DNA of 63,004 nt, counting the filler, from Stramenopiles sp. TOSAG23-2 (taxonomy: Eukaryota), in the NCBI GenBank assembly GCA_900128395.1. It is 5 parts of 5 records of this genome, joined end to end, with 100 filler letters (N's around TTAATTAATTAA, not from the genome) between each part and the next. Parts side by side here need not be neighbours in the genome. Positions count along the whole stretch, not along the records: positions 37,891 to 50,399 come from LT649849.1; positions 50,500 to 63,004 come from LT649850.1; 3 more parts are not named here. The stretch is one strand, 5' to 3'. The translations under genes were made by a program, and so were the position numbers. Below, piece after piece: positions 37,919-61,860 of this stretch (positions are counted from its first letter, which is position 1; each line of letters starts with the position of its first letter). A model generated the notes under the pieces. It saw only the letters and a program-made list of their open reading frames with translations. It had not been told where the DNA came from and did no database searches.

Positions 37919-37954
<36 letters not shown>
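37919..37954. repeat. (AT)n microsatellite; similar tracts at about 2729-2756, 11337-11362 and 23474-23497
   Basis: Perfect AT dinucleotide run. Confidence 0.9.
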
Positions 37955-37957
<3 letters not shown>

Positions 37958-42700: not shown

Positions 42701-43678
42701 GGTATGCATCATGCAAGACCTTTTAGTGCAAAGGCTAGGATACAAGCGAATACAGCATACAAGTCTCAACATCGGCATATCACTGGTGAAACATTAGCAA
42801 AAAAAATTAAAATTATATCCAAGTGGTCTGCGCATGATGAGGAAATCACTAGTATAACGTATTGTAGCATGAGAAAGCATTTGATCACTGGCTCTAGAGA
42901 TACTAGCGTATCTGTATGGACATTGCTTGGAGATCATATTGGTACATTTGGGCAACGCAACGGTTTTTTTAAACGTGGTGGTAAATATATAGCATGGGAT
43001 ATTGATAACAGAAAAACATGGAAGAATGTTATAACAAAATATGATACCAAAGTCGAAAAGGAAGATGAATTAGAAGGAAAGGGAGATGAGAAAATCGATG
43101 ATGATAATGATCTTACAAAGGTGGAAAGTCCAACTAGTGAGGAGGAGATACTGCTGATGGAAGACATGTTTGATAACAATGTTGGTGCTCCAAAGCTTCC
43201 TTCTATTGAAGAGAAAGAGGACATGAATAGTGACAAAGATTATAAGAATGTCAGTAATAAATTTGTCCCAATTCAGATATCAAAAGAAGATGAATTGAGA
43301 AGAGAACGGCAATTGGAAGAAGATTTGTACAAATTGAAGAAAATTAATCACTATAAGCGAATTTATGGCACGCATCATAAAATAAGTGCAGAAGATCAAT
43401 TATTCAATATGAAGCAAAGATATATGTCAAAAAGAAAGGATAATTTCAAAGGCGGTTGGCACGGTAGAGCTGGGAAAAATAATTCAGACATATGGATGCA
43501 ATTACATGTGCCAAGAGTTGTTGATATACCTCAAAATTTAGGTCGATTTATACATCGTCCAATACGCGAAGAACGTCTTGGAATTGGGACCTCTCGACGA
43601 AAGAAGAACAGTGCTGTTCGAGTAAAGAAGAAGAGGGAGGATATTATTGAGTGCAAAATAATATATCATAATTGTTAA
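39755..43678 (+). CDS. EF-hand + WD40 repeat protein (WDR49/EFCAB8/WDY-like, probably ciliary)
   Basis: Canonical EF loop DANGDGNLDWDE; many WD repeats (LSGHMAPV...VWDLR, TGADDGSCKIWNFSNGQCL, WSAHDEEI...SVWTL...IGTFGQ). Confidence 0.85.
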   Translation: MNSDKINIADLQQLNVSTLTTIRDAFNSAESLDMAEFVEVLKLAHEKEFQKLKDAIGANDLINADQIQDKKKRTSFKTHQTLHRVFQKIDANGDGNLDWDEFTNYLLLEEQGAVNLREALEKTEIALQDFPEPSMNAGRYHRESINAILKLTKEQEYLTCSGDGVLRVWRENDLHFQRATRVGIRVTHAVLLTRSKKIAVSAIDRSIRFFDALTLERSGAILHLPSVVTTLGYYHSEQKEKHNIEMLFAGDDQGFLNTFTLSVNEFWHVGTVESYIDLADFPNLTHGVKYDGEWIHDEWITQIKFYEDLDDLVTSSMDGTLAFVDLDRNRQIWNNGNKNGILTNFDDEFNNTFANEKNKKNIKPKSSRIVRRFTVHSKAVHSFIYCPLAKCIASSGLSRDILIWNAHSMGILAKLSGHMAPVTALVLHENQDNTTKDRNQLVSLSTDKVFKVWDLRTYQNLQTIIDNSLYRPENRISSFFFDIKNRRYDAPCLVTGTNRLTLWPIVKTSTESVGTTHSAPIAGAMYNKTFDQVITGALDGSIDVWDYSTGNIVFKFDKAHNMAKMTCMCLDFNQRRLVTGADDGSCKIWNFSNGQCLQRFGGSQSPQELTSVVFACEHPKRSAAAEESNTFGFSKVGNNNGNNDSDSSNNDKNTDDSMKYILTAGWERRVFVYKEGSSDTVLQPFSHCMPPLSYIEKQNILNAGGKARKMYKMRPRARQVRPRSAHVQRRFGNNARLKNHPLMMKRAINAGPRPVSAAPMRRREKNIKSEKSYSTTAHMDDITCICHCPPRMVASGGADGYVILWSLESGHRKWKQKAIDSHHHHHQVFDKLSRGNKSKSKKSMPGSVEVLVYHEKLSTLISTGTDSQIRFWNVHVGNMLAVIDGDQSSTITSMILPTPNPLNNTYMFAGDSSGQIIIWHGDIDSVPALHERNVNGAKKFSDNSNIIHQSFIPQRPGTSLGGVMTHNNSQFKQPVRPNSAGIGMHHARPFSAKARIQANTAYKSQHRHITGETLAKKIKIISKWSAHDEEITSITYCSMRKHLITGSRDTSVSVWTLLGDHIGTFGQRNGFFKRGGKYIAWDIDNRKTWKNVITKYDTKVEKEDELEGKGDEKIDDDNDLTKVESPTSEEEILLMEDMFDNNVGAPKLPSIEEKEDMNSDKDYKNVSNKFVPIQISKEDELRRERQLEEDLYKLKKINHYKRIYGTHHKISAEDQLFNMKQRYMSKRKDNFKGGWHGRAGKNNSDIWMQLHVPRVVDIPQNLGRFIHRPIREERLGIGTSRRKKNSAVRVKKKREDIIECKIIYHNC

Positions 43679-44085
43679 TTATACTATATAGTAGGATATA
43701 TTGAATATTATTCCTCTGAGATAGAGTATTGAGCATGTTATTTACCGCACGGGAAGTAAAGTTATTATATATATACATGTGTGTAAAGAGAAAATTTTTA
43801 TACTCGTGTATATAACTTAATAGAGATTTCAACCATCATTAATTTTTTATAAAAATTGTGTTATTAAAATATAAATATCATAATGTAATTATCATAAAAT
43901 ACGAGCGTATAAATGAACATACATATAGTGTGTGACATAATACCTGGAATTCTTAAGAATAGTCGTACTAGTAGTCGTATAGTCGTAGTATATCTAGTTG
44001 ATAATTATATTAATGACCTTAAATTTAATGGTTAAAATGTTAAAATCTTAAGTTTGTATGCATTGAAAAGCATTATACAACATCT

Positions 44086-44129
44086 TTAACACGAGAAGTG
44101 TAAAAATATTATAACTTAGATTTTAACCA
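44086..44129. repeat. Dispersed ~45-nt motif, copy 2 (immediately 3' of the toxin-like gene)
   Basis: TTAACACGAGAAGTGTAAAAATATTATAACTTAGATTTTAACCA; bracketed by the 13-bp direct repeat TATACAACATCTT (44074-44086, 44137-44149). Confidence 0.88.
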
Positions 44130-44133
44130 ATAT

Positions 44134-46827
44134 TTATATACAACATCTTACATAATGTGGGCCTGGGCATAGGCCTGGTAGAAACTGTTTATCGCCACTA
44201 CTAGCAACACATTTAGATCGCGTAGTACAAATTCCAGCACCATTCTTACCACATCTTTTCTTAATACAACATTTTGTATGGCGGTCCCCATTGCTGCAAA
44301 AACCATGTATTATATGGCCGCCAGCACATTGATTTGACATTCCCCTTGTTATTTTTACACATGTACCATATGTATTTGCATCTAAACCATACCATTTTTT
44401 AGCATCGCATGCATTTTCCATTATTTTACCTATCTCTGCATCATTTATCTCTGCGTCATTTTCAGTGCGCTTATCGCTACTTTTCTTCTTGGCTCGACCT
44501 GTTCTTGGGTCAAGCTGAATTCGTTGAGCAAGTCCACGAGCTTGCAACGTTGGTAAATGACGTACAGCACCAGGTAAATAATCAAACCCCTTTCCTGCGC
44601 CTCTAAATTTTCCTATTTTCTCAACTTTACCAAGACCTGGTATATCCCATGGCTTCGATATAAAAATTTGTTTGCCTTGTCCAACATATTTTCCTCCCTG
44701 TGCAGCGACATATCCTTCAAACATTTTCGTTCCTGCGGGAATTTCCACTTTATATACAGCATCAATATTGCTCCATTCCGTCTTTACGGCTGCATTGTAA
44801 CGTACTTCAAATCTATTTTTAGGAGGCGTCCGAGTCCAAAATTGCCCTAATGCACGATCATCGGGTCCTGCTCTATACAGGGTTATGGGTTCGTCCAATA
44901 CGATTGTGTTGTACTCTCCATTATGGAAGCTTTCTGCGTTATTTTTTGCGCCTTGGAGTTCTTTTTTGTATTCCTCTGCACTTAATTTGTCTTTCTTAGC
45001 TTTGGCGTCATCTAGTATTGGGTTTCTTCCAGGAGGTCCATTTTCTGCTGCATCGCATGAAAATTTATTCTTCTTCATTAAATCTGCAGCTTCATCCATA
45101 TCTTTTATTGGATTGTCAACACCTCCAAGTCTCTTAGTAGATTTATAATAATCATCTGTATGTGATACATGGCCAAACTTTGGATTTGATGTTGGCGGTA
45201 ACGATTTTGCACCATTAACTGATGCTTGCTTTGCACCACTCTTAAAATTTTTAAATACTTTGGTTAATTTCGTGCCGGTTTTGTGTTTAGCACTTACTGC
45301 AGCAATTTTCAATACACGTATATCATGTACCATATCATTGCTCCATGACACTTTAAATTTCTTTCCATTTGATCCAGTAGTTTTACTTCCTGATGCAGCT
45401 GCTTTCACTTTCGATGGGTTCTTTAATCCAAAGTCGAGAACATCTCCAATCGCGCCCATCAAAACAACTTCTGTTAAACAACCAGCAATTCCAAATGATT
45501 TTTCAACAATGGTTTCTTTGCAATCTTTGGAACATTTATTTCGTTTAAGCAAACCAATATTTTTGGATAACGATTTAATTAAATGTTTTAAATGATGAAA
45601 TGAGAAATACAATCCAACAATCGCACCGACCCATTTTATAATTAATGGAACGACTACTAAACCAGCTGCAAGAAATGCAACATTTGCAGCTATTGCCGCT
45701 CCTATTATGCCCAATGTTATTGCAATCATTTTTGTTGCTGGACATTTCCAAAGGCCGACCGCAACACTGCCAAGAAAATTTAAAAATGAACGTAAGACAC
45801 CTTTAATGGCACGTAAAATATGTTTTCTGCTCTCGGAGCTAGTCAAAATTGATTTTGCCGTACGTTTCACTGTGTGCAACAAGTGCTTAAATGAATGAAT
45901 GATTGATTTTAAACCAGCGCTAAAATCATCCTTTAATTGTGCACAATTCTCATCATTTTTCCAAGGTTCGTTAAAATCAGATAACATTCCACCTAGAAAA
46001 CCATCTACGAAACCAAATACGGCAGCAAATCCAGCACCTGTGACTGTCATAGCTTTTCCCATATCACGTGTATCATCAAGTGCTGCAGACATAGAGGTTG
46101 GAAACTCTAATGTATGTACACATTCACAATTGTTAATGTTATCGGTATTGCATTGGCATAATCCTTTACATGGATTTGATGGGTCAGATTTACATTCTTC
46201 ATTACCAGCACATGTAGTGAAAGTAGTTGTTTTCACACAACTGCCATATGCACGTTTTTTCTTTGAACTTTCGTCGGTTGCTGCTCCATATACATAGTTT
46301 GCAGCAGCAAGAGTTTTTTGTTTAGTATATTTTGCAGCAGCAAGAGTTTTTTGTTTAGTATATTTATATGCTTTTTTTAAATATCCATATTTTCTTTCCG
46401 ATTCAATAAAAGTGGTATCAAATGTATTAGCATCATGATCATACTCTTTGTTGGTTTCAAATAATGACGTCAATTCACTCAGTGGTTCCGTTGCTTTGAC
46501 TAAAATATTAGTTATCTCTTCTTGATGTTTTTCCAACTCAAAATTATCTTTATTTACAGGCGTAAAAGCATTTACTTCCAAAAATACTGGACTTTCTTTG
46601 AAGTTTAATTGTTCCTTCAAATTGGCTTTTATCTCCTGTATCTCGCTAAGAGTCAATTGCACTTTTTCACTATTATCATTTTTTATCTGTACGTCTTCTT
46701 CATCCAGTAAATGATTATTATTATTGATATAACTTAAATGGTGTTGTATGGTATTTCGTACCTCAATTGCTGTTGAGGAAATAATTAATATTAATAACAA
46801 TGTTGCATGGAAAGTTTGTCGCTTCAT
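44134..46827 (-). CDS. Secreted multidomain protein with a polymorphic-toxin-like (TNT/ART-fold, putative NADase) domain and C-terminal Cys-rich repeats
   Basis: Signal peptide; small Cys-rich domain; hydrophobic Gly/Ala-rich helices; domain AESFHNGEY..LDEPITLYRAG..GQFWTRTPP..RYNAAV..W.N..VYKVEIPAGTKMFEGYVAAQGG..G.GKQIFI; two GxC...C...GxC...CC repeats ending GLCPGPHYVRCCI. Confidence 0.72.
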   Translation of the reverse strand: MKRQTFHATLLLILIISSTAIEVRNTIQHHLSYINNNNHLLDEEDVQIKNDNSEKVQLTLSEIQEIKANLKEQLNFKESPVFLEVNAFTPVNKDNFELEKHQEEITNILVKATEPLSELTSLFETNKEYDHDANTFDTTFIESERKYGYLKKAYKYTKQKTLAAAKYTKQKTLAAANYVYGAATDESSKKKRAYGSCVKTTTFTTCAGNEECKSDPSNPCKGLCQCNTDNINNCECVHTLEFPTSMSAALDDTRDMGKAMTVTGAGFAAVFGFVDGFLGGMLSDFNEPWKNDENCAQLKDDFSAGLKSIIHSFKHLLHTVKRTAKSILTSSESRKHILRAIKGVLRSFLNFLGSVAVGLWKCPATKMIAITLGIIGAAIAANVAFLAAGLVVVPLIIKWVGAIVGLYFSFHHLKHLIKSLSKNIGLLKRNKCSKDCKETIVEKSFGIAGCLTEVVLMGAIGDVLDFGLKNPSKVKAAASGSKTTGSNGKKFKVSWSNDMVHDIRVLKIAAVSAKHKTGTKLTKVFKNFKSGAKQASVNGAKSLPPTSNPKFGHVSHTDDYYKSTKRLGGVDNPIKDMDEAADLMKKNKFSCDAAENGPPGRNPILDDAKAKKDKLSAEEYKKELQGAKNNAESFHNGEYNTIVLDEPITLYRAGPDDRALGQFWTRTPPKNRFEVRYNAAVKTEWSNIDAVYKVEIPAGTKMFEGYVAAQGGKYVGQGKQIFISKPWDIPGLGKVEKIGKFRGAGKGFDYLPGAVRHLPTLQARGLAQRIQLDPRTGRAKKKSSDKRTENDAEINDAEIGKIMENACDAKKWYGLDANTYGTCVKITRGMSNQCAGGHIIHGFCSNGDRHTKCCIKKRCGKNGAGICTTRSKCVASSGDKQFLPGLCPGPHYVRCCI

Positions 46828-47408
46828 TTTGTATATTTATATGTATATATATATATATATAAGTAGTATTATGTCTTTCTTTCTCTGGGTATATATATAT
46901 TCCAATTAAATAACGATTCACAACATGAATATGAATTATTAAACATTTAATGAAGACAAAGTGTGGTAACAATTTATAAATGGATATTATACATTTTCAT
47001 TCTTTCTTCCTTTCCCCCCTTCTTTATTTCATTTATTACTATCAGCTTTTCGTCACTCCTGGCACCTTCATATGGCGGCTCGTGCGCTCGTCAAAAAATC
47101 TCTCTTTATAATGCTATCTCCCACTATTCGCACGCTGGTTGTTGAAATTACGGTCACCTTATTTACAACTTTTAACTTGGCCCAGCTGGCCAAACAAAAT
47201 ATTATTAAGAATTTGTAAGATGAAACAATTGCCAAGACGCGAAAACATGCAATATTATATATGAGTAAGAGAACATTTTATATAAAATATAAAAATATAT
47301 TTTTTTTATAAAAAATTAATATTTATAATACTGGTAATTTAAATACGAACTTCGTATGATACGAATTAATAGAGCGTGTACTTTTAAAGTCCTGTTCTTT
47401 CTTTTTTT

Positions 47409-50207
47409 TTACCAATTTTCTAATTGTACCCGTTTCTTCAATTCTGAACTCACTTGTCGCTTGCCTTGTTCTACAGCTAAGTCAGTTATAGCGTTATTAT
47501 ACTTAATTGAAGCTTTTTGCTCCTCGATATTGTATTTTAAGCGATCTGTTTGTATCTGGGCTAATTGCAATTGGTATGGTATTGCTCTTTCTCTGGTACT
47601 TGGACGATATGAAGCCTCACTTAATCTACTTTCAATTTGATTACGACGATGTTCGTCCTCTCTATATTCTCTAGTAGCATCGCTCCAACTAAATCTTGGT
47701 ATTTCTATCATATCATTGGCACTATTATCCAAATGCATCATGCCCATTGATGATGCAGTATATACTCGCTCTGACGTTTGTGCCGTTGATGGCAAAGATG
47801 GCAATATAGACGGGTCCCATTCACTGGAGCCCCCTGTATAATTTGCAGTTCTATTGCCTGTATTACCGCGTATATTTATGCCACTATACGTATTATTTCC
47901 TCCACTACCACCACTTGAAGCGATGACACCACCACCTTGTCGTAATACTTGCTCAGACATGTTGAAACTATTTGGAACAGACAATAAACTTCCTTCCATA
48001 CTCTGTGGGGTATGAGTTTTTTGAAATTGTATCCCACTACGCACTTGTCCTAGTTCACTCACTCCAAATCCTAATTGCCGAGCAGTTGTATATGCTTCGG
48101 TAGCATCTTTGGTCTGTGTATAATTCGCTAAAAGGAAAGGTGGAGGAAATTGTGCCTTTTTCAGCAACTTCCAATCAATACTATTAAAAAATTCATGGCC
48201 CTGTAAACCTCTTGGTCCACCTTCACTATTATGTCCCAAACGCCTCTTTGGCTCTTTTGCTAAAAGTCCTTTGCAACAACTTTTCGTTGCCTCTGAAAAA
48301 TTCATTAATTGTGGCATTTCCACGTTATCGTTTATTATGGCACTAAATAGCTCTGTTGCGTTTTCACCATTGAATGGTGTCTTGCCACATAACATTTCAT
48401 ACATCATTACTCCTACAGCCCAATAATCTATTGTTCTACCATAGCATTCACCTTTAATCACTTCAGGGGCAAGATATTGTGGCGTGCCAACGACTTCGTT
48501 TGCGATACCAGTATGCCGAGGTAATGATAGTTCTAGACCACTAATCAAAATATGACCTTTCGAGGTCAACAATATGTTTTCTAATTTTAAATCACGATGT
48601 ATTATCCCACGTTTATGCAAATGGTGTATGCCAGTTAAAATTTCTGCTGTGTAAAATCGTACATGTTTCGCTGGAAACGTTCCACTTTTGCCTCGTAGCT
48701 GTATTAGGTCTTTTAAATTGCCTCCAGGCGCACTTTGTAATACTAATACAACTTCTTTTGGGCTAGTTAAAACAGCACGAAGCTTTTGTACAAAAACAGA
48801 TGACGAGATATTTTGTGCATTTCGCAAACTTTTACATTCTGTCATTAACTTGTCTCTTACAATTTTATCGCGAAGCAATGCTGAACGTCGAAATCTTTTT
48901 AATAATACCATAGCACCAACTTGACCCTTTTTCCACTCACTAGCTACATGTAGCTGTACTGCACCATCGTGGGTTGTTATAGGTCTTGCATTTTGCGCAA
49001 TAGGGTTAGATTTAAACGAGAAGGCGAACATGTTTTCCAATGACGTGTTCATTTCTTCTGCATGTTGTTCTTCTTCAAAATTATACAGTTTTTCAGCAAT
49101 AATTTGTAACTTTTCCATTTCAGTCAGTTTTCTTTTCTTTTTCTTATTTTTTTTCCTCATTGTTATTAATGGATTATCGACTTTAATTGCAGTATATGTG
49201 TTCCAAGTATTATTCCAGGATTCTGCCATTGTTTTCATAGGCATGTCATTATTTTTTGTAATAGTTTCTCTCTTAGATCGTGTATTTAGTGTAAAAGCCG
49301 CTGGAGTCCCATATGAACTGTAACTTGTCTTGCTACTGCCTCCAGTATTATTACGTTGCATCGAAGGTATGGTTTGGCTACTATTTGCGGACATTTGGCG
49401 CAATAATGTTTCCATACCTTCGCTTTCAATCGCTCCAATAGTGGTTGGAAATTTTGGTTGATTTTGAGCATCGATTCTGCCTAAAATGTTTACGCTAGTT
49501 TGTTCTGATTCTGGTTCATATTGTTTAGTTTTCTCACGTGATTTAGATTTATATAATTTGGGATAAATTGACTTAGATGGTGAACGATACTTATAACTAG
49601 GTGTCTTTGCACCTTCGTTTCGTTTAGGTGATTTTCTCTTAGGTCGCTTTGTTAAATTTGGTGCTCCTTCCATTACTTTCTTTTTATCTAACCAAAATGC
49701 GGTCGGATCATCATTCATAATTACCCTACCACCACTGCCTTTGCCTTCAAGTTTATCCATAGCTCCTTTTTTCTTCTTACCAGGTGCCAATCCACTTAAA
49801 TTTACTTTTCGCGCTATCTTAGACCCATGTGTCATAACATTTTTTGGAAATCCGACGTTTGTTTTGCCTTTCTTTTCTGCTCGTTTTTCGACTCTATCCT
49901 TTCGTTGGTCATCCAGCGCCTTCAATGCCAAATCAAATTCATCAAAAGTAACTTCATTATCCCCGTCTTTATCTACATATCCTATAATTTCTTCCATGAC
50001 TCCAACATCTAGTTCTGCATTAGGCACGTATGGTTGTAAACCAACTCTTAACTCTTCAGCGGATAGCAAACCATTTCCGTCAGTATCCATAGCTTTAAAC
50101 ATAAATCTTACTGTCATTCTATTTTTTTTAATGGCTTTCCTCAACTTGGCAGTCAATTTCTTGAGAGTTCTGGAAACCTTTGGATTCCCATTGTTATTTT
50201 TATCCAT
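47409..50207 (-). CDS. EF-hand pair + AGC-type (pseudo)kinase
   Basis: EF loops DTDGNGLLSAEE and DKDGDNEVTFDE; HRDLKLENILL, GTPQYLAPE, DYWAVG, HEFFNSIDW...PPF. DFG is replaced by SGL and the beta3 AMK by AMV. Confidence 0.85.
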   Translation of the reverse strand: MDKNNNGNPKVSRTLKKLTAKLRKAIKKNRMTVRFMFKAMDTDGNGLLSAEELRVGLQPYVPNAELDVGVMEEIIGYVDKDGDNEVTFDEFDLALKALDDQRKDRVEKRAEKKGKTNVGFPKNVMTHGSKIARKVNLSGLAPGKKKKGAMDKLEGKGSGGRVIMNDDPTAFWLDKKKVMEGAPNLTKRPKRKSPKRNEGAKTPSYKYRSPSKSIYPKLYKSKSREKTKQYEPESEQTSVNILGRIDAQNQPKFPTTIGAIESEGMETLLRQMSANSSQTIPSMQRNNTGGSSKTSYSSYGTPAAFTLNTRSKRETITKNNDMPMKTMAESWNNTWNTYTAIKVDNPLITMRKKNKKKKRKLTEMEKLQIIAEKLYNFEEEQHAEEMNTSLENMFAFSFKSNPIAQNARPITTHDGAVQLHVASEWKKGQVGAMVLLKRFRRSALLRDKIVRDKLMTECKSLRNAQNISSSVFVQKLRAVLTSPKEVVLVLQSAPGGNLKDLIQLRGKSGTFPAKHVRFYTAEILTGIHHLHKRGIIHRDLKLENILLTSKGHILISGLELSLPRHTGIANEVVGTPQYLAPEVIKGECYGRTIDYWAVGVMMYEMLCGKTPFNGENATELFSAIINDNVEMPQLMNFSEATKSCCKGLLAKEPKRRLGHNSEGGPRGLQGHEFFNSIDWKLLKKAQFPPPFLLANYTQTKDATEAYTTARQLGFGVSELGQVRSGIQFQKTHTPQSMEGSLLSVPNSFNMSEQVLRQGGGVIASSGGSGGNNTYSGINIRGNTGNRTANYTGGSSEWDPSILPSLPSTAQTSERVYTASSMGMMHLDNSANDMIEIPRFSWSDATREYREDEHRRNQIESRLSEASYRPSTRERAIPYQLQLAQIQTDRLKYNIEEQKASIKYNNAITDLAVEQGKRQVSSELKKRVQLENW

Positions 50208-50399
50208 AGTGATTTACAAAAAAAAAACGGTGGTTGGTTTGATATCATGTATCTTAATAAATTGTGTATGTGTGTGTGTTGTGTGTGTATTTACCTTCTT
50301 CTTCTGTTGTTTAGTTGGATAAAGTCTGAAATACTAAATAAATTATAAATAATAGTATTATTGCCAGGTGATGATTGCACGATTGCCTGAGAGAAGAAT

Positions 50400-50499
50400 N
50401 NNNNNNNNNNNNNNNNNNNNNNNNNNNNNNNNNNNNNNNNNNNTTAATTAATTAANNNNNNNNNNNNNNNNNNNNNNNNNNNNNNNNNNNNNNNNNNNN
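50400..50499. other. Artificial contig spacer (44N-TTAATTAATTAA-44N)
   Basis: Same construct as at 12557. Confidence 0.97.
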
Positions 50500-51794
50500 G
50501 TATATATATATATATTTATTTTAGAAATTAGGCAAAAAAATTAATAATTATATTCCCCCCCATGTTTATTATATTTTTTCGTGTTTTTTCACTTTCGTGA
50601 GAATCACTTTCCTATCATAATTTATATATACTAACAAGTACAATGACATTCCACCAAAACTGAAAGCATATATATGTACTCTGTAAATACAGTATACCAG
50701 GTATGGTGCAGAGTGCAGAGAGAAAATGTGGAAGGATGGTTTTGTGATTTATTTTTTAAAAAACAAATATTTTTAAATTAAAATGTACAAAAAATAAATA
50801 TTGTGTTCTTTTGATAAATTATATACTATTATAAATATATATCATATATATATCATACGTATATAATAATAAAACAACCTGTGGAAACTCTACTCTAAAC
50901 GTGATGTAGCACGACCATCATGATTGAATTAGTTTAATATATATATATTTGTTGGTGTACTAATAGAATGTACCTCTCTGTATGTATGTTGTTATGCTTT
51001 TACTTATTTATTGTATACTGTGAATATTGAATGAAACTTCCATATTAAAAATATTCTTGTTGTACATGTACATCTTTGTAAAACATATACACGTGCCCAT
51101 GTATATATATATATTTTAATAAATATGTAAAACGACTGATATGCGGGTGTGGTTAAATATAACGTCTCAAATTGATCCAGGATTTAAAGTACAATTATTA
51201 GACTATTAAATGAACAATTGAAATGAGATAAATAATTCAATCTTTAATAGTTTTGATTGAAAATTATTTGATAGGGAATTTAAATGTAGCCCGTCATCAC
51301 GTCATCATTTATCATTTATCATTTTGATTTTTATTTGTACTTTTGTAGTCTAACTAGCTCTATCAAAACAGAAATCCGTAATGCTGTGACGGTCTATTAG
51401 GTGTTTATGGTGTGTGCCTGCTATGCTATTGTTTAAGGTAAACAATCCTGATCAAAAAAAGTGCACAAGGCAGCAAGCAGAGAGAAACACAAGTCTTACT
51501 TTTACAGTACCTTAACCTGGTATAGGGCAAGCCTGGCAAGACACATAATTGTCAAATTGGCAGTTAAAATAATAAATAAATATTGAATTTATTTTTTGAA
51601 TTACATTTTTGTGTTTGCAAAAGGTAAAGTAGAAAAGAGACGAAGGGGAAGAGAAAGAATTTTAAGAACATTAATATATTATATTAATATATATATACAC
51701 GGTATACGAATAAAATTAACATCAATAATATAAAAATTGAAATAGATACACCATATAAATTATATATAATATATATATATATACCTAAATAAAT

Positions 51795-52769
51795 ATGTCA
51801 TTAAATGTAGATAGAGTCATTGATCAATTATTAGAAGTTAGGGGAAAAGCAAATAAACGTGTAGATTTACCAGAGCAAACAATATCGAATTTATGTCAAC
51901 AAGTGAAAAATGTTTTTTTAGCACAGCCGATGTTATTGGAAATAGGTGCACCAGTGAAAATATGCGGGGATACACATGGGCAATATGCAGATTTATTGCG
52001 TTTGTTTGAATATGGTGGTTTTCCACCATCTGCTAATTATTTATTCCTTGGTGATTATGTAGATCGTGGTCGATTTAGCATGGAAACAATATGTTTATTA
52101 TTTGCATATAAATTAAAATTCCCTGAAAATTTCTTTCTATTACGTGGCAACCATGAAAGTGCATCTATTAATCGTATATATGGATTTTATGACGAATGCA
52201 AACGTCGGTATAGTGTTAAATTATGGAAAACATTTACGGATTGTTTCAATTGCTTACCAGTTGCTGCTATAGTTGATGATAAAATATTTTGTGTACATGG
52301 TGGTTTATCACCAGAGTTAGAATCGCTTGATTTAATTAATGCAATCAAACGGCCAACGGATGTGCCCGATACTGGATTATTATGTGATTTATTATGGTCC
52401 GATCCAGATGGTGATAGTAGTGGGTGGGGGCAAAATGATCGTGGTGTATCGTATACGTTTGGAAGGGATGTAGTGGAAGATGTTTTAAATACACATGATT
52501 TGGATTTAATATGCCGTGCACATCAAGTAGTGGAAGATGGATATGAATTCTTTGCCCAACGTCAATTGGTGACATTATTTAGTGCACCAAATTATTGTGG
52601 AGAATTTGATAATGCAGGTGCAATGATGTCAGTGGATGATACATTGATGTGTAGTTTTCAAATATTAAAACCTGCAGAGAAAAAACAACGTTATTCATAT
52701 TCTGGTGGTGGGCAAAACATAAGTGGTGGTAGAAGACCAGGTACACCACATTATGGTAAAAAGAAATAG
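51795..52769 (+). CDS. PP1: Serine/threonine protein phosphatase 1 catalytic subunit
   Basis: [61 protein letters not shown]. Confidence 0.97.
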
Positions 52770-52952
52770 CGGAAGGAAGAGGGTAAAAGAAGGTGTTGTT
52801 GTAAATGTGTATTATTATTAATTATTATTATGTGTAGCTGTATGTAATTTATTATAATTTATTAATTTTACATTATGCCTTTTTACAGCTAGACGACCCT
52901 CTGCAAACAAATAAAAAAATATACACCCAAAGAAAAAAAGAAAACGAATATC

Positions 52953-55685
52953 ATGCTATCATTATCATTTATGTATATGAACAAGAGAAAAATGAATGTA
53001 TTATTATTAATAATGATTATAATATTATTATTATTAACAAACATCTATTATGTATTAGCAATTTCTCATAATAATAATGATGAGGTAAGAAATCTTCATG
53101 AGGAACAATTTACACAATATCAAGCAATTAAATATACAACAACATTAAAAAATATATCCAACTTCAAAACATTACAAATAAATGCAGAGGAAAACATTAT
53201 ACAAGTCAAATTAAATCAATACGGCGGTACATTTATATTGACGGATAAATCTTTATATATATGTGATGATTATAATAGTTTACAAGCAAATTGTCAGGAT
53301 ATTTATAAGATGAAAAATAGTACAAAATCAAAATTAGTTATTTTAAACAATAATAATAACAACAACAACAACAACAACAACAATGATATTGAAACCAATC
53401 ATAATTATTACATTGCATTAGTAGATATACATGGTATCGTTATTTTTAAATGTACGTCTACATCGTCATTATCTACAAGTGCAACTGCGTGTGATCTTTA
53501 TAAAATAAATATGGAACAACATTTTGGAACGAAAATTAATGCAATTGATGCAACTACAACAAATATTATAATAGCATCGGATGATGGTTTATATTCCATT
53601 TCGATTGCATCTATTATTTTTATTTCAAATGAAAATAATAATAATATAATATCATGGTATAAACCAGATCCATGCAATGCAACATCGAATAATAAAACAA
53701 ATGTCTATGAAGTAAAATGTGCAAATGATGTTACATGCCTTGCAAGTACCGATATTTGTTTATCTTGGATTAATGTAACAAAGAATGGTGATTTGTATAA
53801 ACATGAATGGACAGGTGGATTAATCGATCATGTAGCAAATTGCATCACATTTACCTCCCCATCATCATCATCATCCAGTAAAAGTATTTGGGTTGGTACA
53901 AAATTTAGTTTAAATCAATATGAAACAATATTGATAAATGATGATAACAATGACTATACTACAGGTTTATGGAAAAGAATGGCAGGTAAACCTGGTGAAG
54001 ACGGATTGCCTGTACGTGCAACTTGTAAAGATATTGCTGCAAGCGTGTCAAATGATGTAGATGGTGATGGGACCATTAATATCTTACTTGCAACATCAAA
54101 AGGTTTAGTTATTTATAGACCGTCAAGCCGGTCTACAAATAGAAATAGGATACACAACAATAAAGTAGAACAAGAAAAGGGAGACGAATTTGACTTTTTA
54201 ACAAGTCCACGATGGCTAACTACTATAAATTCCAATGAACCTGTACTTTCTATTGATATTTCAAATGATGGTAACATTATATTAGCTTCTACAAAATATG
54301 GGATAAGTGTCATTGAAAAAATTACTTGGACACTTGAAGATAAAGCAAATTATTATCAAACAGACGTTATTCCACGACATTTCAGGCCTGTAACGAATTT
54401 AATTTCTAGTTTAAATTTACAAACATTTGGCGATATAACTTCCGCGATGAACAATGAACCGGATGACAATCATGGATTGTGGACCGCTCAATATTTAGCA
54501 ACACAAAGTTTTAGATATAAAGTAACTGGGGATGAAAATGCATATAAAGAAGCAATGAAAGCATTATCAACATTAGAAGTTTTAATGAACGTCACTGGAA
54601 CAAAAGGATTTCCTGCGCGTACTATGACAGAAAATGGTAAATATAAAACAAATTCACATTGGGGTTGGAATGAATCGCCTACACGGGAAGGATGGTGGTT
54701 TATAGCAAATACGTCCTCTGATGAAATTACTGGCCATGTATTTGGATATTCTATATTTCTTGATCATGCTGCGAAAAATGAAAATGATCGTAATCGTGCA
54801 TTATATCTATTAGAAAGTATAGTACTTCGAATCATTAATGATGGTTTCGTATTAAAAGATATTACTGGATTGACTACCCATTGGGGTGTTTGGGCACCAA
54901 AAGATTTAAATGGTGAATTTGGCTGGAGCGATGAACGGGGTTTAAATAGTTTACAAATGTTATCTTATCTGTTTGCAGCGTTGAAACACAGCACAAATCA
55001 AAAAAATAAAGATATATATACGAACGCGTTGTTGGAATTATTAAATGAAGAAAATCATTACCATATCAATATATTAAATCAAAAAATCACTGCACCTAGT
55101 GAAATTAACTTTAGTGACAATGAATTGTCATTTAAACCATATTATGTGATCTCAAATGCATGTGGTTATGGTATTTTCTCTACAAAGAATGATCGCAATG
55201 AGATGGTTGCTGATAATAATAATAATAATATAGTAGTACAAAAAGATGAAATATGTCAGATGTTTTTGCCATATTATGAAAATAGCTTAGAACGTGCATT
55301 TCGTATATTGAAGAAAGAAAAATGTCCTGAATATAGTTTTATATACAATGCAAGTAGAAAAAGTGTAAAATCAACATCATCAACATCGTTCTCATCGACT
55401 TCTTCGAAATGGATCGCTGATGCATTTCATACACTTGAAACATATCCTATAGATTTGATCATATGGCCAGTAAATAATAATGGAAGATTAGATTTACCAA
55501 TTGATGTTGCACATCAACCCTATATAAATCGCAGTTTAGTCTTAATTCCACGACATCAATCGGCTGCTTTGCGTTGGTCATTTAATCCTTTTGTATTTAT
55601 TGCTGGTGATGGTGCTCAAGAGGAAGATCCAACATTTTGGTTGTTATCATATTGGATGGGTCGATTGCATAGCGAGATGGTTTGA
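52953..55685 (+). CDS. Secreted protein: beta-propeller-like N-half + helical (six-hairpin-like) C-half of an uncharacterised bacterial-type family
   Basis: Hydrophobic signal peptide (start could be at 52992). Conserved-looking blocks DDNHGLWTAQYL, VTGTKGFPAR, NTSSDEITGH, ERGLNSLQMLSYL, NFSDNEL, RWSFNPF, WLLSYWMGR. Confidence 0.7.
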   Translation: MLSLSFMYMNKRKMNVLLLIMIIILLLLTNIYYVLAISHNNNDEVRNLHEEQFTQYQAIKYTTTLKNISNFKTLQINAEENIIQVKLNQYGGTFILTDKSLYICDDYNSLQANCQDIYKMKNSTKSKLVILNNNNNNNNNNNNNDIETNHNYYIALVDIHGIVIFKCTSTSSLSTSATACDLYKINMEQHFGTKINAIDATTTNIIIASDDGLYSISIASIIFISNENNNNIISWYKPDPCNATSNNKTNVYEVKCANDVTCLASTDICLSWINVTKNGDLYKHEWTGGLIDHVANCITFTSPSSSSSSKSIWVGTKFSLNQYETILINDDNNDYTTGLWKRMAGKPGEDGLPVRATCKDIAASVSNDVDGDGTINILLATSKGLVIYRPSSRSTNRNRIHNNKVEQEKGDEFDFLTSPRWLTTINSNEPVLSIDISNDGNIILASTKYGISVIEKITWTLEDKANYYQTDVIPRHFRPVTNLISSLNLQTFGDITSAMNNEPDDNHGLWTAQYLATQSFRYKVTGDENAYKEAMKALSTLEVLMNVTGTKGFPARTMTENGKYKTNSHWGWNESPTREGWWFIANTSSDEITGHVFGYSIFLDHAAKNENDRNRALYLLESIVLRIINDGFVLKDITGLTTHWGVWAPKDLNGEFGWSDERGLNSLQMLSYLFAALKHSTNQKNKDIYTNALLELLNEENHYHINILNQKITAPSEINFSDNELSFKPYYVISNACGYGIFSTKNDRNEMVADNNNNNIVVQKDEICQMFLPYYENSLERAFRILKKEKCPEYSFIYNASRKSVKSTSSTSFSSTSSKWIADAFHTLETYPIDLIIWPVNNNGRLDLPIDVAHQPYINRSLVLIPRHQSAALRWSFNPFVFIAGDGAQEEDPTFWLLSYWMGRLHSEMV

Positions 55686-55721
55686 GAGATATTCAAAGGA
55701 TTTTTATGATATTAAGGATTT

Positions 55722-55891
55722 GGATCTTTCACTTTGACAGCCTCACCGCTATCGAATGAGCCTGGCGTCCAGCGCGTTCAACGTACGAACATGTTGGAAG
55801 GATAGAAACCTACTTGTGCTTGTAGAGTATTAGTTTGCAGAGGTGTATTAGTAGGATAGCGCATATTATTCTTGCAATTGAGTATTGAGCA
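55722..55891. repeat. Diverged copy of the internal sequence of the 25.3-kb TIR element
   Basis: GGATCTTTC..GACAGC(C/T)TCACCG..CGTCCAGCGC(A/G)TTCAACG..GGATAGAAACCTAC(C/T)TGTGCTTGTAGA..TATTAG..GAGTATTG(G/A)GCA is shared with 25669-25845. Confidence 0.85.
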
Positions 55892-55905
55892 ATATTACTA
55901 CGTAC

Positions 55906-55950
55906 TTAACACCAGAAGTGTAAAATTATTATAACTTAGATTTTAACCAT
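55906..55950. repeat. Dispersed ~45-nt motif, copy 3 (about 100 nt 3' of the ANK-kinase-TIR gene)
   Basis: TTAACACCAGAAGTGTAAAATTATTATAACTTAGATTTTAACCAT. Confidence 0.88.
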
Positions 55951-56047
55951 CATATTATTATACTACTGTATGCATATGTGAAGTTTATTATCATGCATCT
56001 TACTCATATCTTTGCCTGATGACAAAACTGGGCTCATTTTCTATTTT

Positions 56048-59000
56048 CTAATTTTTAAAATGAAAACGGCGAAATATTTCCTTTGACATTCCAATGTGTT
56101 CATATGTGGTAGACACTGGACCCAATGGTCGATAAACGATACATTCATGGTTTTGAATTGAGTTCGCAATTTTGTTGCTAGTCTGATTCAACGAGAGTCC
56201 TTCTTTACATATTTGTTGAAGGTAAACATCTATTTTTAAGTCAAAACGCCAACGAAATTCTCCTTCGTTTAAGTAAATAAATACAATGTCATTAGATCTT
56301 TTTCCTTGGCCAAACTGTGAATTATAAATACCTACAAAACGCTGCAATGACTTTAGATTTTGCAAAAGATTGCTTGTCAAAATTACAAGACATTTGGACG
56401 CACTTTCAAAATCATTTACCTCTACAAAATCAAAAGTTGTATTTTTCTCCCAAGACTGCATCAACTCTTTGTATAGTTTGACACCAATGCCAGGGGCATA
56501 CACAAATGCTACTTTAACTTTCTTTTTTGGTTTTGACGCACGCAATTGCGGTAGTCCGTTACCCCAAAGACAACCCATCTTGCCTGCCCTACGAATTATA
56601 GTCTTTATCATGGATGATGCTTCAAAATCCCGGCGCCGAAACGGTATCATGTTATGGCTTGCATACTGCTTTTCTATAAACTCTACTACTCGTGCACCAG
56701 TTTGATTTTTACTTGTTTCTTCATATGTCGATTGAAGCCAACCATGAGTCCAATCGTTTGCCCCACTTACTTTTGTACACTTATTTGTTTTCCAACGTTG
56801 ATAGTCCCATGGATAGAACCTGTCATCTGTTTCATTTACTACAATTATGGGTTTGCAATAATCAATTGCCCACTTAATTTCCGCTTGACAAAAATTGCGA
56901 CTTAAAGCATTGTTGGTCAAAAATAAAATAAATAAATCCGAATTATGAACCCCGGTTTTCATGCCTTCTACGGTTAGATTAGTTTGGTTCATGTCACGCC
57001 AACCATGTACTCCCATTTCTTCTAGCAAATGGAACAGGGTGCCAACATCACCGGAAGCTTCTGTTTGAGAGTGTGAAATAAAAACGTGGTATTTCATTTT
57101 TAATAAATCGTTGTCCGCGCTTATTGGCGCTGTTGATTCCTTGAGAAATGGATGAGATTGAATATCACCGATACTTGGCCGTTCACCAGGATTGCCTTTG
57201 AGACACCAGCGTATTAAATGCTTTGCATTCCTTCTTTCTTGATCTGTGCACATGCTTTCTTCATTCGCGAAGGTCAGATTAAGTTTATCATCATCAATTG
57301 TATGCCAAGTACATAGGCGCGATTTATCTTCCAGGTTTACCATATTATCATCACTGATATCTTGGGAAAATAAATGTTGGCCAGCGCATAGTTCGAACAA
57401 AATAACTCCAAGACCCCATATATCAATGCTTTCAGATGCTACTGGGACTGAACCATCTCCGAGATAAAAACGAGCACATTCAGGAGCAATATATGCAGTG
57501 CTACATTTAATTGTTTTGTCCCGCATCTGGGATTTTTGAAGCGTAGCATCTAAATCACAAAGTTTTATCTTATTTGATTTCATTCTCAATATGTTCCTAG
57601 GTTTCAAATCATTATGGATAAAACCCGTTTGGTGCATTTGTAACACGCATTCTGTAATTTGAGAGAACAATGCCCGAACCTCGCTAACATCTATACCGGC
57701 GATCCTGCGCGATGAAAGTTCATTGAATAGGGAGCAAGAACCCTGTTCTAGAACTAAGACATATTCTTCGTTTGAATTTGTACTCTGTGGTCTTTCCAAA
57801 TCGATAACTAATTGTTTGGTGATATTTTTTGACAGCTCTGCACCATCTGGAGGAAGGTGCCACCCAAGAACTTGGGCAACGCACTCTTTAAAAGAAGACG
57901 ATGATCTTGATCTATATCGCACTAATAGTTCACGTAAAAACTCCACTCGCTTGTTCATCACTTTGAGAACAACTTTTTTAGCCGTTGGATCCGATGTTAG
58001 GATATCAATGCCATAGTAAATGACACACGTAGCGGACTTGTGAACGGGTGCGTCTAGATTACCAACTTTGTATCTACCATATAAAGCATTGAGCGTTTTA
58101 GCCCAATGCATTGGCTTTGGCCAAGCACAAATAAAACTGCATAGAATGTTACGAGTGCGTCCCTGGTAATCAAGATATTCCGTTGAAGTGCTGTTGTAAA
58201 CCACCTTTACAAGTTTAAAATGCGCTTCTTGTATTTCATCAGACGGAACTTTTAATTTGTCATATGATTGTTCGCATAAAATATGGAGGGGCGTTTTCCC
58301 AGAAACCGTCTCGGCAACAAGTAATTGCTTGGCCATCTCAGGATAATTAACTAAAATGAAGTTTGTAAATGATAGGATTGAAGATATCTCTTCGTATTCC
58401 GTTTGTGAAAATGTTTTGTCGAACATCACGTGAAGAAAGTTCTTCCCATTTTTATCTTGCACAAGCGCCGGAGTTATATTATGAGCATTAACTAACATCC
58501 AATCATCTTTATCAACTTTGGATTTATCCATAGAAACAGCTTGTATCATTGCTTGTAAGCTGTGCAATAAATTTTTATCAAATGGATTTTTACACAACAT
58601 ATGAAGCGGTGTTTCTCCCCAATCATTTAAAGGATAGCCATCAAATTGTAACAACATTCCATTTAATTTAGATGTGTTAAGCAAAATAGACTCAACACAA
58701 AAAGCTGCTGCATAGTGAAACATAGTATTGCCTCCTTGGAAGTTATTGCTTTCAATTACTGTTTTAAACGGCGTTGACAGTAATCTAACAATTTCTGTGT
58801 GATTTTCCCTGACGGCAACATCAAGGGGGGCTTCTTTTACATTATATAACTCAGATTTGTGTTTCTTTAATTTGTTTCTAGTATTTGTAAGTGTTAAAGA
58901 CTCTGCCTCCGGCATTGCACTCAATCCATTTCGTTTGGTATAAACTCCAAGGGGGTGTGCTGACAGTAGGAAAGGAACTAGGTGAATATGGTTTAAAAAA

Positions 59001-59242
59001 ACACAGTCATGTAACATGACTCGATTTGTATTTTTATCTTTCCAAAATATGCTATCTTTATTTTTATTAAAGAGTTCCTTTACTACGTCTTCATTTGAAC
59101 CGCCATAAACAGCTCTAGAAATAGGCAAATGGCCACCAGACAATGTAAAAAGTGCATTTGGATCTAATTCTATAAGTCGTTTTATTTCGGACAATGATGC
59201 TTTTTTCCAAAGGTCATCATCGCGTTCGTGGAGATTATTCAT
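56048..59242 (-). CDS. Ankyrin repeat - protein kinase - TIR - degenerate TIR protein
   Basis: Ankyrin motifs (GNTMFHYAA, GETPLHMLC, GKTPLHILC); kinase VVLK/FLREL/HNDLKPRN/CDLD/YIAPE/DIWGLG; TIR YHVFISHSQ...WRD...SDLFILFLTNNALSRNFCQAEIKWA...KPIIVV. Confidence 0.85.
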   Translation of the reverse strand: MNNLHERDDDLWKKASLSEIKRLIELDPNALFTLSGGHLPISRAVYGGSNEDVVKELFNKNKDSIFWKDKNTNRVMLHDCVFLNHIHLVPFLLSAHPLGVYTKRNGLSAMPEAESLTLTNTRNKLKKHKSELYNVKEAPLDVAVRENHTEIVRLLSTPFKTVIESNNFQGGNTMFHYAAAFCVESILLNTSKLNGMLLQFDGYPLNDWGETPLHMLCKNPFDKNLLHSLQAMIQAVSMDKSKVDKDDWMLVNAHNITPALVQDKNGKNFLHVMFDKTFSQTEYEEISSILSFTNFILVNYPEMAKQLLVAETVSGKTPLHILCEQSYDKLKVPSDEIQEAHFKLVKVVYNSTSTEYLDYQGRTRNILCSFICAWPKPMHWAKTLNALYGRYKVGNLDAPVHKSATCVIYYGIDILTSDPTAKKVVLKVMNKRVEFLRELLVRYRSRSSSSFKECVAQVLGWHLPPDGAELSKNITKQLVIDLERPQSTNSNEEYVLVLEQGSCSLFNELSSRRIAGIDVSEVRALFSQITECVLQMHQTGFIHNDLKPRNILRMKSNKIKLCDLDATLQKSQMRDKTIKCSTAYIAPECARFYLGDGSVPVASESIDIWGLGVILFELCAGQHLFSQDISDDNMVNLEDKSRLCTWHTIDDDKLNLTFANEESMCTDQERRNAKHLIRWCLKGNPGERPSIGDIQSHPFLKESTAPISADNDLLKMKYHVFISHSQTEASGDVGTLFHLLEEMGVHGWRDMNQTNLTVEGMKTGVHNSDLFILFLTNNALSRNFCQAEIKWAIDYCKPIIVVNETDDRFYPWDYQRWKTNKCTKVSGANDWTHGWLQSTYEETSKNQTGARVVEFIEKQYASHNMIPFRRRDFEASSMIKTIIRRAGKMGCLWGNGLPQLRASKPKKKVKVAFVYAPGIGVKLYKELMQSWEKNTTFDFVEVNDFESASKCLVILTSNLLQNLKSLQRFVGIYNSQFGQGKRSNDIVFIYLNEGEFRWRFDLKIDVYLQQICKEGLSLNQTSNKIANSIQNHECIVYRPLGPVSTTYEHIGMSKEIFRRFHFKN

Positions 59243-59898
59243 CGATTGTGCCTAGATATATGTGATGGATGTGAGAAAAATATACCTATTTCGAGCGATT
59301 ACAAAAAACTTAATGATGTATTTATATTATTATATGTATATGATTATTTACGCGTACTTTTACTCTCTCTCCTCTTTGACTAGAAATGATGATTATTAAT
59401 AATTTACAGGTATAGTTCTTAGTCTACATTTTTAGATTCAGGATATAAATAGTATTAAATAGTAAATATTATAGAATGCATTAATGAAGGAAGATTTTGA
59501 TAGGGAAAAATCGCCCGCTTATTTTCATCGACGAAAATTAAAAAAAAATGACGAAAAGTGCAAAAAAATTGAAGATGTAAAAATTGATTCATGTTATCAT
59601 GGTTGATAGGGACATATATATGTGTTTTTCTCTTACTCATACATATATATATATATATACATGTATATAATATAAATTACATAGAAGATAAGAATGGATT
59701 CTGACACGAACAATACCACTATAAACCTACGGCCCACGGCCGAATAACCCGTTCAACGTTGGCGCGATTGGAAAATAATTTATTACCATTAATATTACTC
59801 GTAGAAACCATTGAAGCGTGTAAAATAAAAAATAATATCTTTATTATTTATTTTTTATAATATTATACTTCGTAATATTATTGATTTAAAAACCTTTT

Positions 59899-60981: not shown

Positions 60982-61445
60982 TATATAATAATGTTTTCTG
61001 ATTTGTTATTAATTATTTTTTTCCCCTTGTTAAAAAAAAAAAATGGAAATAATATATATATTATATGTATATATACTTGCGTAAATTCAATTATATAAAT
61101 ATATTCTAACAAACAACTATAATATCATTCTCATTGTTTTTTATTTTAGTTTATGCTTAAATCATTGTTGTTTTTTATTCATTTTTGCATTGAACTTTGG
61201 TGCTTTGATGAGTTGATGCTGGGTTGGACGTTGGACGATTATTTTTTTATTATTGCTGATGGATTGCAGGAGAGAGGAGAGAGCCTGATGCACCAAGTTT
61301 GAAGGCCTAGGGATTAGGATGGATATTATTATATAATACTGTAAATATTAATCTAAGATATACTGTATTTCCCATTGTCTGTAGTGTTAATTATTAGTCT
61401 ATACTTTGAACTTCTCCGGCTATATACTATATAATATACGCACAT

Positions 61446-61471
61446 ACCGGTAAGCCGGTAAGCCGGTAAGC
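61446..61471. repeat. 8-bp tandem repeat (CCGGTAAG)x3 in the SDR/ankyrin divergent promoter
   Basis: TACCGGTAAGCCGGTAAGCCGGTAAG read directly. Confidence 0.8.
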
Positions 61472-61860
61472 TATAAGAATATCCACATGGCTATGAAATA
61501 ATACCTGTATTATATACTGTGTCCTCGTAGCCTCGTAAGCGATTGTGCTATTCTAGAAAAGCGCAGGTTTTTTTTTTTTAAACAACATTACTTCTTCTTT
61601 TATTATATACAGTTACAGTATTATAATTATGACAAACATACTGCACTACTGTACTGCTACTAACAAAAAAAACAACAAAAAATTCAAAAAAAAAAAAAAT
61701 ATATATATAATAATAAGTCTAGTATATAGATATACCCATTATAATTTACATCGTAAAATATAGATACAAAAACTTGCAAGTGTACATATATATATACATA
61801 TACATATATATACATAACAACATTGAAGTCTATCATAAAAAATATATAATACTTGAAATA

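Follow-up and report, generated by a model that had tools for sequence, protein, structure and literature searches.

Why the same motif of about 45 nucleotides (nt) stands just past the stop codons of two unrelated genes is the question raised by the 63,004-nt stretch of Stramenopiles sp. TOSAG23-2 DNA analysed here (assembly GCA_900128395.1; the whole stretch, composed of five joined pieces, is called the window). One of the genes encodes an ANK-kinase-TIR protein and the other a secreted or membrane protein of 897 amino acids (aa). The initial annotation took both for defence-type genes targeting nicotinamide adenine dinucleotide (NAD), and considered the motif a possible terminus or recombination site of an element dispersing such genes, or possibly a shared regulatory RNA. 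According to the present analysis the motif is probably the 3' end shared by a family of short retroposon copies, which are spread over the nuclear genome of a marine eukaryote that is uncultured, AT-rich and intron-poor. The idea of a mobile-element terminus can thus be kept, the mobile unit being the short repeat itself and not a cassette carrying the neighbouring gene. Since copies of this repeat concentrate at the 3' ends of genes, two unrelated genes of the window have it just past their stops.

The motif itself is real. Its 29-nt core was found at 1-29, 44089-44117 and 55909-55937, in every case on the + strand and with 0 mismatches in a search allowing up to 3, against 0 matches expected and no match in any of 100 dinucleotide-preserving shuffles. 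By direct reading the full motif covers positions 1-43 (where it is clipped by the window start), 44087-44129 and 55907-55950, and these copies lie on three of the five pieces, i.e. on three independent contigs, as had been reported. The original inventory of three occurrences of about 45 nt was too small on both counts: copy 3 extends 5'-wards to 55722, and a fourth, diverged copy was recognised, giving a density of 4 copies in approximately 62.6 kb of the window. The copies are the following (ORF, open reading frame):

1-49, + strand: copy 1, a 3'-terminal fragment of the repeat clipped by the start of its piece, in which the TTA site of the motif shows AACTTTACGATTTT, a small indel
44087-44136, + strand: copy 2, comprising the 43-nt 3' terminus (44087-44129) and a 7-nt tail, ATATTTA (44130-44136)
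55722-55953, + strand: copy 3, 232 nt, 5'-truncated, with the last codons and TAG stop of an ORF, a 3' untranslated part and the 45-nt motif
approximately 25423-25905, + strand: copy 4, of a diverged subfamily, with an ORF tail (25423-25746) followed by a diverged 3' tail

Copy 3 shows 82-84 % identity to other copies across its 232 nt. The ORF tail of copy 4 is 65 % identical at the protein level to residues 340-437 of the predicted protein P0028, and its 3' tail is devoid of the ACAC/GTGT stem present in the motif. A complete version of copy 1, approximately 52 nt long and with the canonical AACTTAGATTTT, is present in the orthologous contig L068.

An exact 22-mer of the motif was detected in at least 116 marine metagenome contigs, with 0 matches in the viral and 0 in the prokaryote collection. 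Of the copies, 119 are followed by 60 nt or more of flanking sequence; when sorted by this flank, they represent 114 independent sites. Lined up on the motif, the copies agree through ...AACTTAGATTTTAACCA and then diverge suddenly 3'-wards; this sharp boundary at AACCA is followed by a short variable tail, e.g. ATC, ATCAT, ATCATT or ATATTTA. On the 5' side similarity stops at a different distance in each copy, which results in a stepwise decay. The common 3' end is reached by 115 of the 123 matches to a 364-nt reference copy (L106:5881-6244), to positions 318-364 of which window copy 2 aligns. The 82 copies lying wholly within contigs range from 36 to at least 364 nt in length, with a median of 98 nt; 13 of them are shorter than 50 nt, 24 are shorter than 60 nt and 5 measure 300-364 nt.

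Direct repeats of at least 9 nt abut both ends in 25 of 78 copies versus 43 of 390 shuffled pairings, and those of at least 11 nt in 14 of 78 copies versus 15 of 390 pairings. The duplications are 9-16 nt long, start at the point of 5' truncation and resume after the short tail past AACCA. Among the examples are duplications of 16 nt (L029), 15 nt (L031, in which the copy is nested within an older inverted one), 14 nt (L076) and 13 nt (window copy 2), whereas for copy 3 no clear target-site duplication was found. The lack of an inverted terminus in an alignment of 16 long copies and the varying length of the duplications led to the rejection of a cut-and-paste DNA transposon, including a miniature inverted-repeat transposable element. 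The duplication around copy 2 is located as follows:

44074-44086, no strand assigned: left duplication TATACAACATCTT, a 13-nt exact direct repeat abutting the insert
44137-44149, no strand assigned: right duplication TATACAACATCTT, overlapping the four codons (R C C I) with which the 897-aa reading frame ends

As the right duplication covers these four codons and the stop sits in the inserted tail, copy 2 is placed at the very end of the 897-aa coding sequence; the insertion would have struck the gene in its final codons, and the stop now in use would be one that the inserted tail provided. The C-terminal tail of this protein is variable anyway, because its relatives extend 3-10 residues beyond the shared ...CC motif.

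A fixed 3' end, variable 5' truncation and duplications of variable length together make up the classical footprint of target-primed reverse transcription, by which non-LTR (long terminal repeat) retrotransposons such as stringent-type pairs of long and short interspersed elements (LINE/SINE) and 5'-truncated LINE copies are made. It is because of these three properties that the repeat is read as a retroposon of the LINE/SINE type, to which it is also similar in having a conserved untranslated 3' tail of approximately 170 nt after the ORF stop. By this mechanism the element RNA would be copied to DNA at a nicked target, starting from the RNA 3' end. Copying would mostly end early, leaving each insert with the common 3' end (...AACTTAGATTTTAACCA and some additional bases, e.g. 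ATCAT) and with a variable loss at the 5' side, and the inserts would become bracketed by 9-16 duplicated bases of the target.

The short copies could also be pieces of the element transcript or DNA captured during the repair of chromosome breaks, which would be frequent where convergent transcription meets. The abundance of very short copies (24 of 82 below 60 nt), the variable tails after AACCA, the failure to find a reverse transcriptase (RT) and the location of copies in convergent gaps, both described below, fit such capture, but it leaves unexplained why 115 of 123 copies should finish at the same base and why regular duplications of 9-16 nt should abut both ends of the inserts. Capture during break repair is therefore considered very unlikely, and target-primed reverse transcription is retained as the origin of the copies.

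The copies are distributed very unevenly with respect to genes. ORFs are present on both sides of 57 copies, of which 47 lie in convergent gaps, 10 between tandem genes (5 + 5) and 0 in divergent gaps; the divergent gaps are the longest (median 816 nt) and yet none of the 54 contains a copy. The distance from the 3' boundary of the copy to the stop of the facing gene has a median of 135 nt (n = 88), and that from the 5' boundary to the stop of the gene behind a median of 225 nt (n = 65). In 30 of the 47 convergent gaps the 3' end of the copy is closer to a stop than its 5' end (binomial p = 0.08, Wilcoxon p = 0.02), an asymmetry of orientation that is suggestive only. Copies of the proposed retroposon would thus survive or land almost exclusively at the 3' ends of genes, mainly in short convergent gaps, owing either to targeting or to the loss of insertions that hit promoters. 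Safe-haven retrotransposons are known from compact genomes, the Dictyostelium TRE elements and yeast Ty1 and Ty3 residing beside tRNA genes. The present element resembles them in that its copies occupy almost only one harmless class of sites in a gene-dense genome, and differs from them in that these sites are 3' ends of protein genes and convergent gaps rather than genes transcribed by RNA polymerase III.

Such placement might alternatively mean that a mobile element has been co-opted as a 3'-end signal, i.e. a two-way terminator and polyadenylation module for convergent genes that is kept by selection. Besides the excess of convergent (47 of 57) over divergent (0) locations and the median of 135 nt separating the 3' boundary from the facing stop, this explanation could account for the stop codon supplied by the copy 2 insert and for predicted proteins such as P0037, in which a host GTPase domain runs into the element ORF tail. 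A selected module is difficult to reconcile with copies of 36-364 nt that have nothing fixed besides the last 40 nt or so, with the absence of motif and stem from the diverged subfamily at 25423-25905, with the 32 of 82 convergent gaps in the same loci that contain no copy, and with the lack of an Rfam match and a folding no better than that of shuffled sequence. Co-option is accordingly regarded as unlikely, and the retroposon reading is followed below.

The long copies hold the conserved last 71 codons of an ORF, the stop of which lies approximately 170 nt before the 3' end. Related predicted proteins reach about 414-437 aa (P0019 and P0028, the latter of 437 aa). A HMMER pass over 1.84 billion representative proteins gave 106 matches, every one of them a fragment of at most 243 aa. 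The nearest Atlas clusters contain proteins of 412-447 aa and are unnamed; the nearest named cluster (score 0.88) has zf-RVT on 17 % of its members and is treated as a lead only. In distant relatives (27-39 % identity) the patterns ALDMRY, G-x-C-P-N...H, GGRCLNxC, LHDxV...L-x-K-A, R-x-D-I-x-V, Y-F/V-D-x-T-V and P-F-x-x-D/N-T-x-G-x-F-C are kept. By eye, a Cys/His cluster can be discerned and, after it, R-x-D-I-x-V ... Y-F/V-D-x-T-V, a pattern reminiscent of PD-(D/E)XK; the homologous region begins approximately 165 aa before the cluster. Two AlphaFold models of element ORF proteins had a mean pLDDT (predicted local distance difference test) of 46.6 and 55.9, too poor for a fold search. The search of 18 ORF relatives against Pfam at E up to 1 yielded matches at the level of chance only, with the exception of the host GTPase fused in P0037.

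LINEs of the R2, NeSL, CRE and R4 type possess a C-terminal restriction-like endonuclease, which in R2-like elements follows a CCHC motif and lies at the end of one long RT-containing ORF. The motif order of the element ORF may be that of the Cys/His and restriction-like endonuclease module of R2-type LINEs, which is treated as a lead only. In the protein, the likeness to R2-type LINEs lies in these motifs seen by eye; unlike such LINEs, the element has nothing RT-like upstream, and the comparison finds no support from hidden Markov models, PDB sequences or structures. In occurring as short non-LTR copies in a protist genome that is compact and rich in AT, the family resembles R2-type LINEs and the EhLINE and EhSINE elements of Entamoeba (PMC1635306, PMC3118788), of which the latter two are described as inserting without targeting in the abstract of one report (PMC1635306). 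The present family departs from typical LINE/SINE elements in its coding part, a protein of about 415-437 aa of no recognised family, and in its placement, extremely biased to the 3' ends of genes. The ORF at L018:584-1252 (minus strand), which has only 27 % identity to the element protein over 181 aa, indicates that these genomes also contain another, distantly related family of such elements.

Several points weigh against a retroposon of the LINE/SINE type. A clear target-site duplication accompanies only about one third of the copies, and the AT-rich flanks inflate the number of chance direct repeats. No poly(A), microsatellite or other simple-repeat 3' tail was found on the copies; such a tail is typical of many, not all, non-LTR clades. 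The placement figures come from plain ORFs of at least 150 aa called without intron models and from loci chosen for holding the motif, so the background in the comparison of motif-bearing intervals (50 convergent, 9 tandem, 0 divergent) with motif-free intervals of the same loci (32 convergent, 47 tandem, 54 divergent) is biased, as the neighbours of a convergent gap cannot be convergent themselves. Convergent and divergent gaps are equally frequent on any chromosome, and for this reason the ratio of 47 to 0 cannot be an ascertainment effect. The element ORF matched no Pfam family even at E up to 10 and its profile no PDB chain at E up to 10, and a nuclease function of the protein is suggested by motifs seen by eye. 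Relatives of P0028 with 766-2185 aa were not found in a word-indexed protein collection, and no match N-terminal to P0028 residue 11 was obtained among the 1.84 billion representative proteins. An RT was found neither among the relatives of the ORF tail and of P0028, nor among these 1.84 billion proteins, nor in the clusters of ORFs from the loci. The clustering comprised 549 ORFs from 679 kb of loci, and the 8 ORFs from repeated clusters that were searched against Pfam gave host families only.

The failure to find an RT is a weak negative, since repeats yield short contigs in metagenomes. The element may be non-autonomous, or else the part of it that bears the RT is missing from the assemblies; a non-autonomous member of a retroposon group needs no RT of its own. 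With the structural properties of LINE/SINE copies present and the RT missing from the present data, the repeat is a new family of a known kind. A bolder proposal is that of an RT-less retroposon lineage whose protein (about 415-437 aa, with the Cys/His cluster and a PD-(D/E)XK-like nuclease) would actively steer insertions towards the 3' ends of protein-coding genes, above all convergent ones. This seems unlikely; if true, it would be a novel way for an element to target safe havens in a compact eukaryotic genome, and host genes could also acquire stop codons and 3' ends from the element, copy 2 being an example. Literature searches, with subscription journals, Repbase-type libraries and supplements outside their coverage, returned no description of the element nor of a retroposon confined to convergent gaps. 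The total lack of copies in divergent (promoter) gaps, the 47 of 57 copies in convergent ones and an ORF not recognised by any family library are the features that make the family worthy of note.

The repeat also affects assembly. Contig breaks within 120 nt of the 22-mer occur 34 times on its 5' side and 5 times on its 3' side, because the copies merge at their shared 3' end and assemblers stop where copies of different length branch. It is for the same reason that the first piece of the window begins within the motif, contig L068 containing the same site with its upstream flank. The point at which the repeat interrupts assemblies can be predicted, which is of importance for binning and gene calling.

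Small insertions at the TTA site of the motif were noted in 29 of 118 copies, and it is such an indel that makes the difference between window copy 1 and its orthologue in L068. Eight of the insertions are CG-bearing, often palindromic, and have the form TA-CG...CG-TA, e.g. TTACGACTTCGTA. They are located at 28-33 in the window and in L002, L026, L029, L043, L051, L075 and L083, and may be footprints of a TA-targeting cut-and-paste element or mark a mutational hot spot. The 8-mers TACGAAGT, ACTTCGTA and TACGAGTA are approximately 2.5-3.5 times, and TACTCGTA approximately 2 times, commoner in the loci than in shuffled sequences.

Two further observations concern the surroundings of the window copies. 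Copy 4 is enclosed by a perfect 48-nt inverted repeat (25277-25324 and 25914-25961), one arm of which coincides with the very beginning of piece 3. This inverted repeat could be an artefact of chimeric or fold-back assembly near the end of a contig, or else a genuine inverted duplication. The second is a fragment upstream of copy 2:

44030-44055, - strand: inverted fragment GGTTAAAATGTTAAAATCTTAAGTT, which by eye looks like the 3' terminus of the repeat

The likeness of this fragment is weak, as it was not matched by the DNA search at up to 3 mismatches, and it may represent a remnant of an older, oppositely oriented copy.

The genes adjoining copies 2 and 3, two of which (the 897-aa and ANK-kinase-TIR genes) had given rise to the cassette hypothesis, are the following:

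39755-43678, + strand: WD40-repeat protein, 1307 aa, convergent with the 897-aa gene, copy 2 lying in the 455-nt gap between them
44134-46827, - strand: 897-aa secreted or membrane protein P0001, with its stop (44134-44136) within the tail of copy 2, 4 nt from the motif end
52953-55685, + strand: protein of 910 aa that starts like a signal peptide and matches no Pfam family, encoded convergently to the ANK-kinase-TIR gene
56048-59242, - strand: ANK-kinase-TIR protein P0002, 1064 aa, with its stop (56048-56050) 97 nt from the motif end

The motif does lie in the same orientation past the stops of the 897-aa and ANK-kinase-TIR genes, as initially described. As for the products of these genes, the TIR domain of P0002 was confirmed by Pfam, whereas the toxin label of P0001 derives from a TNT-like (NAD-glycohydrolase) region at residues 600-770 recognised by language-model features only, the protein having no Pfam family and no PDB support. 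The statement that the motif is not seen here after any housekeeping gene proved untenable. The + strand genes at 39755-43678 (WD40) and 52953-55685 have copies 2 and 3, respectively, just as much on their downstream side, copy 3 occupying most of the 362-nt gap between the 910-aa and ANK-kinase-TIR genes, and copy 1 is found in L068 at 104 nt downstream of a zuotin/DnaJ gene.

The scan of neighbours covered 96 of the 98 ORFs on the 3' side of copies; the two omitted were the second listing of L058 and L080:238-2907, the latter representing the same site as L060. The 96 ORFs have ordinary mixed functions and form a cross-section of a eukaryotic proteome, so that placement is random relative to gene class. 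Among them are ribosomal protein uL2, Phe-tRNA synthetase, kinesins, BBS5, COG4, a P4-ATPase (flippase), SNF2, DEAD-box and XPG proteins, CK2 beta, cyclin, sterol reductase, carboxyltransferase and ion channels. Only one neighbour belongs to the ANK-kinase-TIR family: in L087 an independently truncated copy lies 58 nt from the stop of a 32 %-identical ANK-kinase-TIR paralogue.

It had been proposed that a Helitron-, Crypton- or integron-like system might capture NAD-targeting defence genes and spread them as cassettes, with the motif serving as its terminus or recombination site. The positions of two window copies after a TIR-domain gene and a gene with a TNT-like region (by language-model features), and that of the L087 copy after the paralogue, are in line with this proposal. 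It is at variance with the 95 of 96 neighbour ORFs that are unrelated and ordinary, with the presence of a single motif per site instead of a pair around a gene, with the 9-16-nt duplications, which bracket the short insert only, and with the lack of any tyrosine recombinase or HUH/Rep ORF among the window ORFs or the 8 scanned cluster ORFs. We consider a cassette system extremely improbable. The association with defence genes is judged to be due to chance, because gene ends in the host genome commonly carry the repeat; that chance might be responsible with only two gene-linked copies had been admitted from the outset. The cassette lead is removed in this way: a common repeat follows genes of every kind.

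The named classes were rejected individually. Helitrons leave no target-site duplication, insert between A and T, have 5'-TC and CTRR-3' ends with a subterminal GC-rich hairpin, and carry a Rep/helicase gene. The element shares with them a conserved 3' terminus with a small hairpin nearby, and departs from them in its duplications, its AACCA end, a non-significant 4-bp stem (z -0.43) and the absence of a Rep/helicase ORF from the window and from the 8 scanned cluster ORFs. An integron-like or gene-cassette system was dismissed on account of the one motif per site, the ordinary convergent-pair neighbours and the absence of a recombinase from the window, and a Crypton-like one on account of the target-site duplications, the lack of paired sites and the lack of a visible recombinase.

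The hairpins to which attention had been drawn proved less informative. The ACAC-N5-GTGT mini-hairpin exists as described, but its stem has only 4 bp and a stability like that of shuffled sequence (z -0.43 and +0.17). Rfam gave 0 matches and the fold z-scores (-0.43, -0.43, +0.17 and +0.38) were no better than chance, so that a structured non-coding RNA or 3' untranslated regulatory element, as also suggested initially, finds no support and was rejected. Both GGCC hairpins reported upstream of the two genes are present:

47179-47191, no strand assigned: GGCC palindrome GGCCCAGCTGGCC, upstream of the 897-aa gene
59731-59741, no strand assigned: GGCC palindrome GGCCCACGGCC, upstream of the ANK-kinase-TIR gene

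Such palindromes showed no connection with the repeat, either in the window or in the 679 kb of loci, which also tells against the cassette proposal. The two palindromes of the window compare with 0.23 expected (1 of 100 shuffles reached 2), and the loci contain 10 versus 0-2 in shuffles. GGCC-N3-5-GGCC palindromes, often GGCCWGCWGGCC, are thus rare but enriched; they also occur in L001, L017, L031, L056, L059, L085, L097 and L104, and may be a protein-binding site.

The host can be described to some extent from the window and related contigs. The G+C content of the window is approximately 33 % and its ORFs are long and mostly uninterrupted. Pfam identified eukaryotic genes for Orai, CLASP, PP2C, PP1, SGT1-like, Patched/sterol-sensing, WD40 and GDP-mannose dehydratase proteins, and the presence of BBS5, GAS8 and kinesins in related contigs points to a flagellate. 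Many marine metagenomes, as well as metatranscriptomes of poly(A)-selected RNA from the sea, matched the stretch 43000-47000. The source is therefore an uncultured marine protist, widespread in both kinds of ocean data, and the family is abundant in it.

The five pieces of the window, each of about 12.5 kb, are 1-12556, 12658-25176, 25277-37790, 37891-50399 and 50500-63004. The spacers at their joints (12557-12657, 25177-25276, 37791-37890 and 50400-50499) consist of 44 N, TTAATTAATTAA and 44 N; they introduce stops in all six frames, and features cannot be read across them. The span 44029-56048 given in the initial annotation crosses one such joint.

P0001 and its relatives P0004-P0007, found as 5 matches, form a small family of secreted or membrane proteins of approximately 640-980 aa without a Pfam match. 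In their shared layout both the N-terminal part and a C-terminal module are Cys-rich, and hydrophobic segments are present as well. All except P0007 conserve a region, ITLYRAGP...QIFI.KPW, and it is this region that by language-model features lies near TNT NAD-glycohydrolases. A multigene family of large proteins (L043:4369-6996, L043:10129-12369, L063:3-1613, L086:3-1211 and L051:1-624), with at most a weak ephrin-receptor-like Cys-rich match, directly adjoins element copies twice. Local repeats unrelated to the motif were also noted in the window. These are an exact 82-nt pair at 37269-37350 and 37407-37488, spaced 138 nt, a 122-nt tandem pair at 39093-39336 (83 % identical), which precedes the WD40 gene, and one of 135 nt at 18674-18943 (95 % identical), situated immediately before the TPR gene.

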